DNA from: Deltaproteobacteria bacterium | Lineage (GTDB): Bacteria; Myxococcota_A; UBA9042 | Direction of reading: 5' to 3' | DNA length: 64,000 nucleotides | Assembly (NCBI GenBank): GCA_016875335.1 | Contig: VGRO01000008.1 | Span: 18-64,017, forward strand | Shown: positions 26,947 to 62,100 of the stretch, piece after piece | Layout of the letters: every line of letters starts with the position of its first letter | How positions within the stretch are numbered: the first letter of the stretch is position 1 | Translations under genes and position numbers: made by a program | The notes under the pieces: model-generated | Databases searched by the model: none | The model's input: only the letters and a program-made list of their open reading frames with translations | Told to the model about the DNA's origin: nothing

Positions 26947-28193
26947 AGCCCGCCGCGTGGGCCCTGGCCGTGGCGCTGGCTGCGTGCGGCGGGACCGATC
27001 CCGTTGCCAGTTCGACCGACAGCGCGACCGACGGCGTTGGCGATGGGCCAACCGGCGATGTCGCGCCCCTGCCGGCCGACCCCACCAGCGTCGAGCTGCG
27101 CCAGGTGGTGCCCGGGCCGGGGCTGCCCGCCGAGATTTCGCCGCAGAACAGCAACAACAACCTCGACGTGGTCCGGCACGACGGCAAGGTGTACTTGACC
27201 GGCCGCACCGCGCCCAACCATTTTGCGGGCCCCGAGACGCGGCTGTGGGTGGCGTCCAGTGCGGACGAGCAGGCGTGGCAGTTTGAGACCCAGGCAGCGA
27301 TGGGCACCGATCTGCGCGAACCGCGCTTGCTGGCCTTCGGCGGCAAGCTGCGTTGGTACTTTGCGCAGTTGGGCAGCGATCCCAATCAGTTCCAGCCCAA
27401 AGGCGCGTTTGTGTCCGAGCGCACGCCGGCCGGCAGTTGGACCGGCCCGCAGCCTTTCTACCTGCCGACCTTCATTCCCTGGCGGTTCGCGGTCCACGGC
27501 GGCAAGGCGTGGCTGTCCGGCTATACCGACGGCGACAACGTCTACAAGTCGGACCCGGGGCCGATCGCCGTGCACCTGCTGACCTCGTCCGACGGCCAGG
27601 CATGGCAACCGGCCTTGGGCAGCGACCCGGTCGTGCTCAAAGGCGGCGTGAGCGAAACGGCCTTTGCCGTGCTGGCCGACGGAACGGTGGTCGCGGTGGG
27701 CCGCAACGAGGCGGGCGAGACCGGCTTCGGTTTTGGCAGCAAGGTGTGCAAGGCCAGCCCAGACCAGGGGTTGCAGTGCAAGGCCGACCCGCGCAAGTAC
27801 GATTCGCCATTGCTTTTCGTCCACGCCGGCCAAGTGTGGCTCATCGGCCGCCGCACCCTGAACCCGGACGGCAGTACCGCGGACTATGACCTCGGCGCAA
27901 AGACGGGCACGCCGGCCGAACACTATGTGCAATACCAGTTGGTCAACTGGACCAAGCGCAAGCGCTGTGCGCTGTGGAAGGTGGACCCGGCCGCCTTGGT
28001 GGTGTACTGGCAACTGGACCTGCCGAGTCGCGGCGACACCTGCTTTGCCAGCATCGTATCCACAGGGGCGGATCGCTACGCGGTCTACAACTACAGTTCG
28101 CCGCTCGACGCGACCGCTGACCCGCCGTGGTTCGAGGGCCAGATGGGCGAGACGCGCCTGTACCGCAGCCTGCTGGTGTTCGGCAAGCCTTGA
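26943..28193 (+). CDS. Lipoprotein with a sialidase-like (Asp-box) beta-propeller
   Basis: GTG 26943 overlaps the folC stop; lipobox LAA-C; Asp-box-like SSADEQAW and TSSDGQAW; short beta-strand repeats. Confidence 0.62.
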   Translation: MKPAAWALAVALAACGGTDPVASSTDSATDGVGDGPTGDVAPLPADPTSVELRQVVPGPGLPAEISPQNSNNNLDVVRHDGKVYLTGRTAPNHFAGPETRLWVASSADEQAWQFETQAAMGTDLREPRLLAFGGKLRWYFAQLGSDPNQFQPKGAFVSERTPAGSWTGPQPFYLPTFIPWRFAVHGGKAWLSGYTDGDNVYKSDPGPIAVHLLTSSDGQAWQPALGSDPVVLKGGVSETAFAVLADGTVVAVGRNEAGETGFGFGSKVCKASPDQGLQCKADPRKYDSPLLFVHAGQVWLIGRRTLNPDGSTADYDLGAKTGTPAEHYVQYQLVNWTKRKRCALWKVDPAALVVYWQLDLPSRGDTCFASIVSTGADRYAVYNYSSPLDATADPPWFEGQMGETRLYRSLLVFGKP

Positions 28194-28199
28194 ATCTGC

Positions 28200-29045
28200 C
28201 TACCAAAACACCGTAACCTGCGCTCCCTGCGGAGCCACCGCCAGCTCGACCGGGCCGCGCAGCGCCAACCAGGCACCTGCCGCCGCCAAGACAGCGCCTG
28301 CACCCGTGGCCACGGCGCCGAGCGTGGTGCGGGTTCCGATGCGCGCCGCGCGGGCCTCCGCGTCGCTGCGCGAGATGGCGAGCACCAGTTTGCTATCGGC
28401 CGGCGCCAGATCCTGGTGCAGCGCCGCCCGCTCCGACGCGGCAGATGCCAGGGCCCACGCCCCCGCGCCGAGGCTGATGACGCCCAGGCCCACCGCCGCC
28501 CAACCGGCTTTTTCCCGTCCCGCCATCGGCCGCTCTGGAGGCGCGGAGGGCGGCGCGACAAGGGCGACCGTCGGCGTCGCGGGCAGCGGCGCATCGGCCG
28601 GCTTGGCGACGGCGTCGGCCGGTTGCGGGGCCCCGGTCTTGGGGTCGTCCGGGCGCGCGCCCTTGAAATGCTTGCGCGCTTCGAGCAATTGGTCCAGGTA
28701 TTCCTGGGCCTTGTCCACCAGTTGCGCGCCCTTGGGCGACCGCGCCAGAAACTGTCGGTAGTCGCGCTCTGCGGCGTCGAGATCGCCCTTCTTGTGCAGG
28801 CAGCGCGCCGCCGAGAACAGGTAGGGCAGGTAGGTCGGGTCCTTGTCGTAGGCCTGGTGGAAGAACTCTGCACACAACCCGAATTCGCCTGCCTGGTGCT
28901 TGGCGGTTGCGACCTGCGAAATGGCCGCTGCTTCTTCTTTGGCCGACTTGTCGACGCCGTGGACCGGGCGCGGCCCCACCAAGGCCACGACCCAGGCCGC
29001 CCACAGGCTACTCGACCACCACGCTGCGCTTGATCTTGGTGTCAT
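28200..29045 (-). CDS. Secreted TPR protein with C-terminal Gly-rich hydrophobic hairpin
   Basis: Signal-like N-terminus; TPR pattern YLFSAARCLHKKGDLDAAERDYRQFL; Pro/Ala linker; two GxxxG helices; ends VTVFW. Confidence 0.72.
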   Translation of the reverse strand: MTPRSSAAWWSSSLWAAWVVALVGPRPVHGVDKSAKEEAAAISQVATAKHQAGEFGLCAEFFHQAYDKDPTYLPYLFSAARCLHKKGDLDAAERDYRQFLARSPKGAQLVDKAQEYLDQLLEARKHFKGARPDDPKTGAPQPADAVAKPADAPLPATPTVALVAPPSAPPERPMAGREKAGWAAVGLGVISLGAGAWALASAASERAALHQDLAPADSKLVLAISRSDAEARAARIGTRTTLGAVATGAGAVLAAAGAWLALRGPVELAVAPQGAQVTVFW

Positions 29046-30024
29046 CGTCGCCTTTGGGTTTGCCCGGATGCGCGGCGCGCGGACCGGCCGGCCGGGCGGG
29101 TTCTGCCACCGCGGCGGGGGCCGGTGCGGCGGTCGGGGTCGGCGCAGCGGCAGGCAGCGCCTGCATCGCCACCACCAACAGATTCTGCACCGCCGGGTTG
29201 TCGGGGTCCAACGCCAGGGCCTGCCGCAGCAGGTCCACGCGGGCCTGGCCGGAGGTGCCCAGCGCCTCGGTGACTTTCTGGCCCGCAGCCACCTTCGCCT
29301 CGGCCTTGGGGTCGACGACGACCGGGGCCGGAGCGGGCGGCGCGACTGGGGCCGGCGCCACAGCGGGCGCGGCTGCAGCGACAGGGGCCGGTGTGGATCG
29401 GTTGTTCAGCGCGACGGCCAGCCCGATGCCGCCGATGACCAGGGCCGCTGCTGCGACCGGCGCCACCCAACTGCGGTGCTTGACCAAGGGCTGCGCACCA
29501 TCGAGCTTGAGCCGGTACAGGCTCGGCGGATTGCGGATGTTCTTGAGTTCGACCTTGCCGACCGGCTCCATCGCCAGGTCTATCTTGCCGTCGATTTGCA
29601 GGAACACCTGCTCGGTAATCGAGATGCCGCCGGGCTCGGCCTTGTCCTGGACCCGCGCCGCGACGTTGACGCCGTCGCCATAGATGCCGTCGCCCTGCAC
29701 GATGATGTCGCCCAGGTGGATACCGATGCGCAGCCACACCTGCTCTTCTTTGGGCAAAGAGTCGTTGCGGGCCTTGAGGCGGGCCTGGATCTCGGCGCCA
29801 CACCGCACGGCGTTGACCACCGAGTCGAAAAGCACGACGAACGCATCGCCGATGGTCTCGTGTTCGGTGCCGTCGTGGTCCTTGAGGCATTCGCGGACGA
29901 TCTCGCGGTGTTCGAGGACCGCTTTGACCGTCCGTGACTCGTCCTGGCCCATCATGGCCGAGTAGCCCTTGATGTCGGTGAACATGATCGCCTTGAGGCG
30001 TCGGTTGCCGTCGGGGCTGGACAT
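29008..30024 (-). CDS. Class III nucleotide cyclase (guanylate-cyclase-type residues), single TM, periplasmic tail
   Basis: AIMFTDIKGYS, ETIGDAF, RIGIHLGD and GIYGDGVNVAARVQ; TM helix WVAPVAAAALVIGGIGLAVAL; short TPR-like C-terminus. Confidence 0.9.
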   Translation of the reverse strand: MSSPDGNRRLKAIMFTDIKGYSAMMGQDESRTVKAVLEHREIVRECLKDHDGTEHETIGDAFVVLFDSVVNAVRCGAEIQARLKARNDSLPKEEQVWLRIGIHLGDIIVQGDGIYGDGVNVAARVQDKAEPGGISITEQVFLQIDGKIDLAMEPVGKVELKNIRNPPSLYRLKLDGAQPLVKHRSWVAPVAAAALVIGGIGLAVALNNRSTPAPVAAAAPAVAPAPVAPPAPAPVVVDPKAEAKVAAGQKVTEALGTSGQARVDLLRQALALDPDNPAVQNLLVVAMQALPAAAPTPTAAPAPAAVAEPARPAGPRAAHPGKPKGDDDTKIKRSVVVE

Positions 30025-30061
30025 CGTCGGGGGCTCGGCGCGCGTTGCGCTGGTGGTCGCT

Positions 30062-30090
30062 AGGGTAAGGGGTCGCACCGAGGCACGCAA
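30062..30090 (-). promoter_or_regulatory. sigmaA promoter of the cyclase-TPR operon
   Basis: Minus strand TTGCGT (30090-30085)-17 nt-TACCCT (30067-30062), 37 nt before ATG 30024. Confidence 0.6.
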
Positions 30091-30217
30091 GCACGGTGGG
30101 GGGGATCGTTCAACTCCTTCTTCTTGCGTCGAAAAGTCGGATGCCGCGCGCGCCCGCAAAAAGTTGACGCCGCGCGCCGCCGGCGCACGCTATTGGCCGG
30201 GTCGGGCAGGAGCGGTG

Positions 30218-30904
30218 ATGCGGCGGCTTTTTCATTCCATCCTGTGTTTGGCTGCGCTTGCAGCGGTCGTGGCTGGGCCCTCCGCCCGTGCTGCGCCGCT
30301 GGCCGTGGTCGGCGCCCGGCCCATCGACCGCGGCGACTGGTCCGGCTGGGCGGCGGCGGGGCTGCCCGATTTCGAGTTTGGCGCGATGTTCGGCCTGGCC
30401 TCGACCGCCGACGCGGGCGGCCGCCTGCGACTGGGTTACGGCAATGGCCAGGCACTCGGCGGCTTCGGCGCGGCGGCGGCGGGCGTGTTGCGGACCCAAT
30501 TCGCTTCGGCGGGTCCGTGGGCCTTTGCGCTGGTATCCGAGCCCGGCCTGTTCGTGCACGGCGGGATTTCCACCTGGTCGCCGTATGCCAAGGTCGGCAA
30601 GAAGGGTGCAGTGTCGCTTTTTGGTGTCGACGCCGGTTTGCCCTCGCTTGCGGCCAGCGCTCTGCTGATGCCCAACCTGAACCTGTCGCTGTCCATCGGT
30701 GCGCCGGCACGGGTGTACCTCGCGCCCGAACCAACCCTAGAGCTGCCCGTCCTTTTCAAGGTGGCGGTGCAGTACGGCCTGTCGGGACCGTGGTCGCTCT
30801 TGGCCGGCGCCGACCTCGGGGCGACCTTCTACGGGCCCGGCGGCGGGGCGCCTGCTGGCGCGGTAGAGTCGCGGGTGCGGTTTGGCGTGGGGTATTGCCC
30901 GTAG
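30218..30904 (+). CDS. Hypothetical secreted or outer-membrane beta-strand-rich protein
   Basis: AGGAG RBS, signal peptide ending SARA, alternating amphipathic strands ending RFGVGYCP. Confidence 0.6.
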   Translation: MRRLFHSILCLAALAAVVAGPSARAAPLAVVGARPIDRGDWSGWAAAGLPDFEFGAMFGLASTADAGGRLRLGYGNGQALGGFGAAAAGVLRTQFASAGPWAFALVSEPGLFVHGGISTWSPYAKVGKKGAVSLFGVDAGLPSLAASALLMPNLNLSLSIGAPARVYLAPEPTLELPVLFKVAVQYGLSGPWSLLAGADLGATFYGPGGGAPAGAVESRVRFGVGYCP

Positions 30905-59135: not shown

Positions 59136-62100
59136 ATGCCGCAGTTCTCCGCCGACTATCTCGCCCGCTTCACGCCCGCGTCGTTGGTGTCACGGCTGCT
59201 GGCCGACCCGACGCCCTTGCAGACCGCCGTCTCTGATGAACTGCACGGCGCGGTCCTGTTCGCCGACATCAGTGGGTTTTCGCGGATGACCGAGATCCTC
59301 TCGGGCCAGCCCGACGGCGCCGAGCGCATCAACGCGGCGCTCAACGACTACCTCGGCAAACTCATCGAGACGGTCATCGACCACGGCGGCGACGTCATCA
59401 AGTTCGCGGGCGACGCGCTCATCTGCATCTGGGATGCCGCCGGGACCGGCGTTCCGGCAGCCGTGCGCGCCGCGGCTGCGTGCGGTCTGCGCGCCCAGAA
59501 GGAACTGGCCAGCTTTACCGTCGGGGACGACATCGCGCTGTCGATGCGCGTGTGCATCTGCTCGGGCGACATCTCGATGTTGCACGTGGGCGGCGTGCTC
59601 GAACGCTGGGAGGTGGTGCCGACCGGCGCCGCGGTCGCCGACCTCAAGAGCCTGCGCGCCCTGACCGCACCCGGACAGGTGGTGGTCAGCGCTGCGGCCT
59701 GGTCGAACCTCGGCGCGCCGTTCTCGGGTCGGGCAGCGCCCAAACTGGGCCCCGACGGCAAGTCGACGCTCGCTGACCTGGACGTGTTGACCACGCGCGC
59801 CGCGTTCGGATCCGCCGGCGACAAGCCCATGCGCCTGAACTGGGTCGACACCCTGCCACCGGCCGAGCCGCTCTTGCGCGCGCCGGTCCACCCCGACGCC
59901 GAGCCGGCGCTGCGCATGTTCGTACCCGGCGTGGTGCTGTCGCGGTTGGTGGAGGGCATGTCGGACTGGCTGTCTGAGCTGCGCCGGGTGTCCGTGGTGT
60001 TCGCGGCCCTGCCGGGCGGCGTCGCCACCCAGGTCAACGTGCACCACGTCCAGGCGATGGTCACGGCGATGCAGAAGGCGGTCTATCGCTACGACGGCGC
60101 CATCAACAAGATCAGCGTCGACGACAAGGGTGCAGTGCTCATCGCCGCGTTCGGTCTGCCGCCGATCTCGCACGAAGACAACGCCGCCCGGGCGCTGCAA
60201 GCCGCGATGGCCATGCGCAAGGCCTTGATGGAGGGCGGCGTGCAGGCGGGCGTCGGCGTGGCCACGGGCCAGGTGTTCTGCGGCACGGTCGGCAACAACG
60301 ACCGCTGCGAGTACACGGTGCTCGGCCACGTGGTCAACCTGGCAGCCCGCTTGATGGAGGCCAGCGACGGCAGGCTGTGGTGCGACGATCTGACCGCCCA
60401 GCAGGCCAGCGCGCACCTCGAACTGCAGAAGCTCTCGGTCATCGAGGTGCGCGGCCGCACCGAACCCGTGCAGATCTGGGCGCCGACCGGCAACGTGCGC
60501 GCGGCGGTCAAGGCCAAGACCGTGATGGTCGGCCGCCAGAAGGAGCGCGAGGCCCTGGCCGAATGCATCCAGTCGGTGCTGCGCGCCCGCCAGAGTTCGG
60601 TCGCCGTCATCATCGGCGAAGCCGGCATGGGCAAGTCGCGCCTGCTCGACGACTTCGAGCGCCAGGCCGCGGCGCTGAACCTGCGCGTGCTCAAGGGCGC
60701 CGGCGACGCGGTGGACCGCAATGCGCCCTACCACCCGTGGCGCACCGTTTTCGCTGACATCTTCGGCATTCAACCGACCGACGACGTAGCCGATCGCGGC
60801 GCAAAGGTCGAGCGCTTCCTGGCGGCCTTGCCCGACAAGGTGCGGTTGCTGCGGCCGTTGCTCGAGGTGGTGCTGGCCGCCGATCTCGGCAGTGACGAGG
60901 CGGTGCGCCATCTGTCGGGCGAGGCGCGCGCGCAGCAGACCCAGAAACTGCTGGCGGCCGTGCTGCAACACGCGATCGAACGGCAGCACCTGGCGATCAT
61001 CGTCGAGGACGCCCATTGGTTCGACTCTGCGTCGTGGGCGCTTTTCCGGTCGCTGCGCCTGAACGTTGTTCCGGTCATGTGGGTGGTGGCGTCGCGGCCG
61101 ATCGACGACCCGCCCGAGGAATTCCAAGTCCTGCTGCGCGACCCCGAGATCAGGAAACTGCGCCTCGGACCGCTCAGCCGCGACGACGCCGGCAACCTCG
61201 CGTGCCAGCGCATCGGCGTCAAGGGCCTGCCCAGCGAAGTCATCGATCTCATCGCCGCCCGCGCCGAGGGCAATGCGCTCTACGTCGAAGAGATGGCCCT
61301 GGTGCTGCGCGACACCAAGAGCATCGTCGTGGACGGCGAGGACACCCGATTGGCGGTCCCCATCGAGGAACTGGGCAACCTGCAGTTGCCGGCGACGGTC
61401 GAGGGCCTCATCGTCAGCCGCGTCGATTCCCTGCAACTGCCCGAACAGATGACCCTCAAGGTGGCGTCGGTGGTGGGCCGGCAGTTCCCGATCGACACGG
61501 TCCAGGACGTCTATCCGCTGCCCGAGCACAAGCGCGACGTGCCCAAGATGATCCCCGGCCTCATCCAGCAGGAGCTGGTGCGCAGGGCCGACATCGCCGA
61601 CCAGTACATCTTCAAACACGTGCTGACCAAGGAGGCGGTCTATGGGCTGATGCTTTTCGGCCAGCGCCGCGGGCTGCATCGGTCGGTCGCCGAATGGTAC
61701 GAGCGACGCTACGCCGACGACCTGACGCACTACCTGCCGATCCTGGCCCACCACTGGATGCGCGCAGAGGAGTGGAGCAAGGCGCTGACCTGCCTGGAGA
61801 TGGCGGCTGAGCAGAACCTGGACCGCTACGCCAACCGCGAGGCCGTCGAGCTCATCACCCAGGCGCTGCACCTGGACAAGAGCCACCCAGGCAACGCCGA
61901 CGATCCACGGCGCGCGCATTGGCACCGCCACCTCGCCGAAGCATGGTTCCGTCTGGGCCGCCTCGATCTGGCCAAGACCCACGGCCGCCAGGCGCTCAAG
62001 TTCCTCAAGGCGCAGGTGCCGACGACGCTTTTGGCCACGGTCGCCGGCCTGCTCTGCCAGGTTGCGATACGCATGGCGCAGCGCTGGTTCCCGCACCGCT

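Follow-up and report, generated by a model that had tools for sequence, protein, structure and literature searches.

Does a pair of overlapping genes from an uncultured freshwater myxobacterium encode a guanylate cyclase (GC) and its dedicated membrane adaptor, and, if so, how would a signal reach the enzyme? Both genes lie on the minus strand of a 64,000-nucleotide stretch of contig VGRO01000008.1 (assembly GCA_016875335.1), hereafter the window, whose genome is designated G000. They specify a 338-residue nucleotidyl cyclase (P0001) and a 281-residue protein with tetratricopeptide repeats (TPR) and hydrophobic segments (P0002, the partner or adaptor). Proven bacterial guanylate cyclases are, to our knowledge, very few, and the rules for recognizing them by sequence are weak. 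Our best explanation, to which we assign a joint probability of about 0.55, takes P0001 for a catalytically competent class III nucleotidyl cyclase that works as a homodimer, most likely makes cGMP and forms the output arm of a split receptor; the module to which it belongs would be the cyclase-output version of a larger adaptor family paired with Ser/Thr kinases. As to the product, the residues that select the purine place the odds for cGMP (guanosine 3',5'-cyclic monophosphate) as the main one somewhat above even.

The cyclase and its purine selectors

The features that carry the catalytic assignment are the following (window coordinates; models were built with AlphaFold2 and their confidence is given as predicted local distance difference test, pLDDT).

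29008..30024, minus strand: cyclase gene P0001, 338 residues, with an ATG start (open reading frame, ORF, and translation; PF00211 at E=5e-19; orthologues in 17 genomes)
29506..30006, minus strand: cyclase homology domain, residues 7-173, cytoplasmic (AlphaFold2 pLDDT 93-98; PDB matches; D17, D60, N120, R124 and K161 conserved)
29857..29859, minus strand: Glu56, the first purine selector, Lys in adenylate cyclases (GAG in H-E-T-I-G-D; aligned to Ma1120 K101; invariant in the clade)
29686..29688, minus strand: Gly113, the second purine selector, Asp/Thr in adenylate cyclases (GGC in D-G-I-Y-G-D; aligned to Ma1120 D157; invariant in 17 orthologues)

The Pfam family PF00211 matched residues 12-170 of P0001 with 69 bits against a cut-off of 21.9, and the full catalytic set that had been read from the letters in the original prediction is indeed present in the single chain: FTD (D17), GD (D60) and VNVAAR (N120 and R124), plus K161. 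The two metal-binding aspartates and the transition-state Asn/Arg pair (D17, D60, N120, R124) are invariant across the clade described below. When P0001 was compared with PDB chains using phmmer, the best match was 3mr7 (E=1e-26), which we take to be the cyclase of Ruegeria (formerly Silicibacter) pomeroyi, followed by Ma1120 of Mycobacterium avium (4wp3 and its mutant 5d0g; E of about 1e-18 to 4e-18), while Cya2 (2w01) came ninth with E=5.8e-6. Since 3mr7 and Ma1120, both K/D enzymes, outscore 2w01 by a wide margin, the core is not of the Cya2 type; judged by these alignments, it is a short-arm, LipJ/Ma1120-like core with an acquired E/G pair. Together with Rv1900c/LipJ (1ybt), whose selectors are presumably N/D, these two are the closest solved domains (E=1e-26 to 2e-7) and have the same short-arm fold. 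The natural enzymes of the Ma1120 group are K/D adenylate cyclases that are soluble or joined to other partner domains, whereas P0001 is membrane-anchored and carries E/G.

The same alignments placed Glu56 on K101 and Gly113 on D157 of Ma1120, and in 5d0g, the K101E/D157G mutant of that enzyme, E and G occupy exactly these two columns. The glutamate and glycine announced for the two codons therefore stand, and the residue on K101 is glutamate and not lysine. P0001 thus has the two sequence marks of a guanylate cyclase, i.e. Glu at the adenine-binding Lys position and a small second selector instead of Asp/Thr. Equivalence with the E/G pair of Cya2, which the original prediction had put forward, was bridged through Ma1120, and it agrees with PMC4215837, in which the selector positions of Ma1120 align with the E-G pair of Cya2.

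How well is this pair kept? Among 71 database homologues, about 40 carry the set D-E-D-G-N-R, two carry E/D and one carries Q/N, and the next relatives of the E-type sequences are K/D, N/D, S/D or G/D. In a maximum-likelihood tree of catalytic domains, the E-type sequences form one clade with a Shimodaira-Hasegawa-like approximate likelihood ratio (SH-aLRT) support of 95 and a stem length of 0.8; the E/G subclade accounts for 36 of its 39 members and diverges down to about 42% identity. The orthologue is single-copy and occurs in 17 of the 37 genomes of one uncultured Myxococcota family (freshwater and groundwater metagenome-assembled genomes), all 17 with E/G, and none was found outside that family in genome samples of its class or phylum. 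G000 itself encodes about 18 class III cyclases, and P0001 is the only one with Glu at the first selector, the rest having Lys and, in one case, Leu. The tree suggests that E/G originated independently, within a lineage of K/D type. Since the Glu selector, of the kind known from eukaryotes and Cya2, would have evolved anew in another class III branch with canonical catalytic residues and been fixed by selection, the clade offers a clean test case for the determinants of GTP use.

One locus of a sister E/D cyclase deserves separate mention (L073, 332-3974). There the cyclase (P0035), which has a polytopic C-terminus, follows a fusion of a Ser/Thr kinase with a cyclic nucleotide monophosphate (cNMP)-binding domain and a second, PAS-like cyclase. 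This arrangement is possibly a cNMP-dependent protein kinase circuit, and the kinase with a cNMP-binding domain beside the E/D enzyme hints at a coupling of these cyclases to Ser/Thr phosphorylation.

Choice of nucleotide

Because Glu/Gly replaces Lys/Asp and stays fixed through the whole clade, the cyclase most likely makes cGMP. In the structure of the rhodopsin guanylate cyclase (RhGC) with GTP, the hydrogen bonds of the Glu to N1/N2 are the main and sole canonical guanine contact, while the second selector residue is variable and may act via shape (PMC7384201). Furthermore, PMC5995499 reports that the single exchange E488K turns Cya2 into an adenylate cyclase.

Several observations weigh against cGMP. 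In Ma1120, the double exchange K101E/D157G raised guanylate cyclase activity about 5-fold and left ATP as the preferred substrate, with kcat/Km of 1.92 (ATP) versus 0.29 (GTP) x10^6 per M per s, i.e. a 6-7-fold bias. The E/G pair alone is therefore insufficient for GTP preference. A Cya2-like Tyr before the catalytic Arg was needed to equalise ATP and GTP use in the Ma1120 mutant, and at this position, where Cya2 has the activity-enhancing Tyr, P0001 carries Ala123, aligned to Ma1120 A167. Moreover, since the active site of the characterized bacterial guanylate cyclases GuaX and GcyA is of another, non-canonical kind, sequence rules for bacterial guanylate cyclases are weak in general. Of the earlier claim that P0001 is a guanylate cyclase, the part concerning the Cya2-like Glu/Gly selectors held, and the substrate preference drawn from them was left in some doubt by the Ma1120 exchange and by Ala123.

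These kinetics suit a cyclase that makes cAMP, or both cAMP and cGMP, despite Glu/Gly, and that serves cAMP signaling like the other ~17 cyclases of the genome. Such an enzyme would also be in keeping with its closest solved relatives, 3mr7 and Ma1120, both K/D, and with the finding that the specificity of class III cyclases is set in catalysis and not at binding (PMC7384201). We nevertheless regard it as rather unlikely, as Glu and Gly are invariant down to about 42% identity whereas no other cyclase of G000 has Glu, and in natural E-type enzymes guanine recognition depends mainly on Glu, whose exchange for Lys flips specificity. The Ma1120 mutant, in turn, is an engineered protein without the second-shell adaptation that a natural lineage had time to acquire. 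Improbable, in our view, is the use of another nucleotide, e.g. a pyrimidine NTP (nucleoside triphosphate) as in Pycsar cyclases, or a low-activity or regulatory pseudo-enzyme with a scaffolding role. A small second selector would enlarge the pocket, and PADLOC gave weak PycC matches (best 28 bits, E=2.6e-7); however, all catalytic residues are intact, and the PycC matches reflect generic similarity of the cyclase fold. Nor is a Pycsar-type effector adjacent, the neighbors being the TPR/transmembrane (TM) adaptor and a convergent lipoprotein gene, and the locus is a chromosomal signaling module, single-copy and vertically inherited in one family, not a defense island. A role in Pycsar defense was accordingly dropped, given matches so weak and generic and a context that does not fit.

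Membrane anchor, adaptor and periplasmic lipoprotein

The remaining parts of the cyclase and those of its partner are listed below.

29404..29466, minus strand: single TM helix of the cyclase, residues 187-207 (hydropathy 1.87 over about 185-207; AlphaFold2 helix; K/H/R on the cytoplasmic side)
29161..29310, minus strand: three-helix TPR-like periplasmic unit of the cyclase, residues 239-288 (AlphaFold2 pLDDT 94-98; conserved in orthologues; weak TPR_19/TPR_11 matches)
29011..29040, minus strand: extreme C-terminal peptide of the cyclase, TKIKRSVVVE-COOH (orthologue alignment; comparable peptides at the ends of kinases that pair with partner paralogues)
28200..29045, minus strand: partner gene P0002, 281 residues (translation; immediately 3' of the cyclase wherever the locus is long enough; alignment; AlphaFold2)
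29008..29045, minus strand: 38 nucleotides shared by the end of the cyclase gene and the start of the partner gene (coordinates; overlap or abutment also in relatives)
28656..28949, minus strand: periplasmic TPR domain of the partner, residues 33-130 (AlphaFold2 pLDDT about 96; Foldseek; invariant residues)
28260..28520, minus strand: two long Gly/Ala-rich hydrophobic helices of the partner, residues 176-213 and 226-262 (hydropathy 1.63 each; AlphaFold2 pLDDT about 88-91)

The AlphaFold2 model of the cyclase, built on a 45-sequence alignment, places after the catalytic domain (7-173) a 13-residue linker, the TM helix, a disordered Pro/Ala spacer, the three-helix unit, a second spacer and a disordered end, in which a Lys-rich stretch precedes the terminal peptide. 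Hydropathy and the model agree with the topology originally proposed, i.e. a cytoplasmic cyclase, one TM segment, a Pro/Ala linker and a TPR-like tail. No outer-membrane part was identified, and both proteins look like inner-membrane proteins with periplasmic parts; the description of the pair as trans-envelope found no support. The layout of the cyclase is common among its K/D, N/D and S/D relatives and, as such, is not unique. In the orthologues, the three-helix unit has the consensus AGxKVxEAxxxxGxxRxxLLRxALxLDPDNxAVQ, and the terminal peptide reads T(K/R)IKR(S/A)(I/V)VVE or, in the most distant proteins, IKPRVVED or KVKPRVVLD. In the most distant loci (L016, L017), the two genes do not overlap and the peptide is still conserved; the overlapping partner frame therefore does not account for its conservation.

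The partner opens with a signal peptide (1-30) and a three-TPR domain; a Pro/Ala linker leads to a hydrophobic helical hairpin, and a beta hairpin with Trp as its last residue closes the chain. By hydropathy, the hydrophobic segments of the partner lie at about 182 and about 242, and the two helices are, according to the model, a probable inner-membrane hairpin, a module common to the whole paralogue family. The secreted TPR protein with a membrane hairpin that had been expected was thus recovered in all its parts (signal peptide, modeled TPR helices and two hydrophobic segments). By sequence, the repeats stay under the Pfam cut-offs (TPR_2, 23.5 bits versus 27), and the TPR assignment was made by structure: Foldseek superimposed residues 33-130 on consensus three-TPR proteins with a root-mean-square deviation of 1.7-2.5 A over about 86 columns. 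Peptide-binding TPRs were among the Foldseek matches (Sec72-Ssa1, CTPR390-Hsp90 peptide, Hip, STI1, SycD). The invariant residues A39-A41, S43, D69, P70, Y75, F77-R81, K85 and E93-D95 are clustered on the A helices and on the AERD motif (92-95). In the same domain, Cys 57 (in LC) and Cys 82 (in AARC; window about 28800-28877) are kept in 14 of 14 aligned orthologues and might be linked by a disulfide or act as a redox-sensitive pair.

A homologue of the partner stands immediately 3' of the cyclase in all orthologous loci with enough sequence, and across genera (at least 8) only the cyclase and the partner are syntenic; this, together with the E/G pair of all 17 orthologues, answers to the conserved gene pair that had been postulated. 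The 38-nucleotide overlap is likewise borne out by the coordinates and likely leads to translational coupling of the two genes. In contrast, the single promoter that had been claimed for both was not recovered, as no sigma-70-like site was found in 27900-30500, and co-transcription is consequently argued from the overlap alone. As the in-frame stretch 5' of the cyclase ATG, up to 30159, is not conserved among orthologues, translation starts at the ATG at 30024 or at a nearby codon.

Might the TPR/TM protein be no regulator of the cyclase at all but an unrelated envelope protein next to it by chance, and the conserved terminal peptide an artefact of overlapping frames? The 38 nucleotides of the cyclase 3' end that also encode the partner N-terminus in the window could suggest so, but the peptide persists without gene overlap in L016 and L017, and the synteny that extends over at least 8 genera comprises this pair and nothing else. 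In addition, the sister E/D and Q/N cyclases with polytopic C-termini lack such a partner, and paralogous adaptors are arranged in the same way with kinases. A chance neighborhood is on these grounds very improbable. An origin of the pair by fission of a cyclase-TM-TPR ancestor was rejected as well, since BLAST and hidden Markov model (HMM) comparisons of the partner and the tail with the C-termini of distant cyclases gave nothing significant.

The two-gene module of the original prediction turned out to be too small, because a lipoprotein with the Peripla_BP_6/ANF_receptor fold (periplasmic binding protein, PBP; E down to 2e-20, PF01094 matches) is co-inherited with the pair as a third component. 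Its gene lies within a few bases 3' of the adaptor in seven genomes (G071, G084, G086, G092 and G104-G106) and also on the contigs of P0012 and P0029. In the genus of the window, it is unlinked but retained, the G000 copy (C15:30822-32138) having 52% identity. Within the family, all 17 genomes with the cyclase have a PBP orthologue, and of the 20 without the cyclase just 1 does; by genus, both genes occur in 8, the PBP only in 1, the cyclase only in none and neither in 5 (hypergeometric p about 0.003, calculated by hand), counts that are inflated by shared ancestry.

The one exception is instructive. In G085, which lacks the cyclase and has the PBP, an operon (L095, G085:C126, 4372-10268, minus strand) comprises two tandem Ser/Thr kinases ending in ...RVQPAVMD and ...AAPAVMD, an adaptor orthologue (profile score 263) and the PBP. 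By its gene content, this operon reads as a natural output swap, with the same sensor pair and a similar tail peptide, and with a kinase instead of the cyclase. G099, a 92% complete genome of the same genus, is without cyclase, PBP and adaptor.

A possible reader of the product was found in a similar manner. In G095, G096 and G098, the gene directly 3' of the adaptor specifies a PP2C phosphatase that carries a cNMP-binding domain at its C-terminus. Every one of the 17 cyclase genomes has an orthologue of it (E<=1e-92), as have 4 further genomes, the G000 protein (C14:26952-28205) having 59% identity. We consider this phosphatase the leading candidate effector, as a lead only.

Kinase modules, known systems and other features of the window

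The kinship of P0001 with kinases rests on the adaptor. Among 1.8 billion, the partner profile picked out 151 cluster representatives with E<=1e-30 and, when the limit was relaxed to E<=1e-10, 841, mostly as full-length matches. About 25 paralogues are present in G000 (C123:11400-13927, C365, C29:23744-24469, C297, C34, C60 and others), and they are all built alike: behind a signal peptide come between one and several TPR units, then a linker and the hairpin module, and the last residue is aromatic. Several of them lie directly 3' of kinases, and wherever the gene 5' of a paralogue was readable, it was always a Ser/Thr kinase with one TM segment and a Pro/Ala periplasmic tail. Kinase versions of the module are found on G000 contigs C123, C365 and C29 and in relatives. 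The predicted analogy to myxobacterial kinase/TPR pairs thereby gained a concrete basis. The kinase tails end in a Lys-rich stretch and then a short peptide, of which each orthologous module has its own version, for example:

G000 C123 and G102: kinase tail ...RPKVKPALMNDD
G000 C29, G093 and G098: kinase tails ...KKKAQGYETVD and ...KKKATTLETVD
G093, two loci: kinase tail ...GGSDVREIL
G000 C297: kinase tail ...GLKPTLAD

Module-specific peptides among the G000 kinase tails include KVKPALMNDD and KKKAQGYETVD. These end peptides are conserved between genomes, and the Pro/Ala tails that precede them are divergent. Since the kinases paired with adaptors end in conserved peptides of their own, the terminal peptide is the common denominator of the output proteins. 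Taken together, the kinase-adaptor set looks like a general, undescribed receptor family; our literature search found no description of a receptor design that combines a solute-binding lipoprotein and a TPR/TM adaptor with an anchored output enzyme bearing a periplasmic tail peptide. Near another adaptor paralogue (L087, G000:C363), an open frame of (L/P/S)-C-L repeats (LCLCLPLCLCLP...) was noticed on its 5' side.

These findings led us to propose how the parts may work together. The cyclase would be the output arm of a split receptor, its catalytic domain tethered by about 13 residues to the TM helix. The PBP lipoprotein may bind a periplasmic ligand, as its adjacency and co-inheritance suggest. 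The co-translated adaptor would dock on the C-terminal peptide and the TM helix of the cyclase and set the geometry of the catalytic dimer; its TPR domain might bind the terminal peptide by analogy with EEVD-TPR clamps, a role to which the conservation of the peptide points. Through the tail peptide and TM packing, the adaptor could then relay the state of the PBP to the cyclase and so alter how its juxtamembrane catalytic domains are arranged in the dimer; the product, presumably cGMP, would be read by the cNMP-gated PP2C. In its most far-reaching form, the proposal is a split receptor guanylate cyclase with an ANF-receptor-fold sensor, a TPR-clamp adaptor and a cGMP-to-PP2C output, in which kinase and cyclase are interchangeable outputs of one undescribed myxobacterial architecture; this form is tentative. 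The following points count against the proposal as a whole: (i) the Foldseek matches of the adaptor TPR domain are generic, with E about 6e-3; (ii) the PBP and PP2C-cNMP genes are unlinked to the pair in G000; (iii) the phosphate-binding cassette of the PP2C, FGEIALVSGQPRSATV, does not discriminate between cGMP and cAMP; and (iv) G000 holds 26 cNMP-binding domains, among which no cGMP-specific receptor was distinguishable by sequence, and the effector assignment is for this reason soft. If the proposal is true, cGMP feeds directly into the Ser/Thr phosphorylation network, and the module offers a testable link from cGMP to protein dephosphorylation. The same adaptor family would also serve dozens of Ser/Thr kinases, a design that could explain signal input to many orphan myxobacterial kinases.

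Among known systems, Cya2 (sll0646 of Synechocystis PCC 6803, PDB 2W01) has in common with P0001 the canonical metal Asp pair, the Asn/Arg, the Glu/Gly selectors, a membrane anchor and an extracytoplasmic part. According to PMC5995499, Cya2 is ordered as an N-terminal CHASE2 sensor, a TM segment, a transducer element and a C-terminal cyclase; in P0001, by contrast, the cyclase is N-terminal (from about residue 7), the TM segment follows and the sensor parts are separate proteins. A Pfam domain search found no CHASE2 match on P0001, and Cya2 is a distant match (E=5.8e-6 versus 1e-26 for 3mr7) whose Tyr is replaced by Ala123. GuaX (XC_0250 of Xanthomonas campestris) and GcyA/B/C of Rhodospirillum centenum are likewise bacterial class III enzymes implicated in cGMP signaling, with linked cNMP-binding effectors. 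They have Leu/Ala in place of the Asn/Arg pair and Leu/Ala-type substrate positions (PMC3770947), whereas P0001 keeps N120 and R124 along with E/G.

The combination of a Glu-type cyclase output, an ANF_receptor-fold ligand module and a kinase-type context recalls the animal receptor guanylate cyclases such as NPR-A, and NPR1 chains are among the weak PDB matches of P0001. NPR-A, however, is one polypeptide in the order sensor, TM, kinase homology and cyclase, whereas here three polypeptides are involved and the cyclase is N-terminal; the resemblance is one of logic and most likely convergent. In the GlnH-GlnX-PknG system of Actinobacteria, a solute-binding lipoprotein acts through a membrane adaptor on a signaling enzyme, and a TPR element is present as well (PMC6069109, PMC9769921, PMC8546545). 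Its proteins are unrelated to those of the module: GlnX is polytopic and PknG is a soluble protein whose TPR is intramolecular, while in our case the adaptor carries the TPR in the periplasm, and the output enzyme, be it a cyclase or a kinase, is itself anchored in the membrane and has a periplasmic tail. P0001 is outside the Cya2 family, the GuaX/GcyA type and the animal receptor guanylate cyclases, and is Cya2-like by its selector pair. The novelty lies in two things: E/G has arisen on its own in another branch of the family, and the receptor has a three-part architecture that kinases use as well.

Two further features of the window were noted. A convergent lipoprotein gene (MKPAAWALAVALAACGG..., window about 27050-28193, plus strand) stops 7 nucleotides from the adaptor stop. 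Its adjacency to the pair is kept only within the genus (L020, L028), and it is therefore not part of the module; a wider conserved cluster, with an MMPL transporter neighbor and other flanks, was rejected for the same reason, i.e. conservation within the genus only (L020, L028) and not across genera. Finally, a 1408-residue ORF (59077-63301 in contig coordinates) contains, at about 59250-60464 of the window on the plus strand, two domains that are degenerate and only weakly resemble cyclases (E=1e-6 and 1e-8). The second has Ala in the second metal-Asp column, the first metal-Asp column being outside the aligned region, and the ORF is probably a pseudo-heterodimeric or inactive cyclase module.

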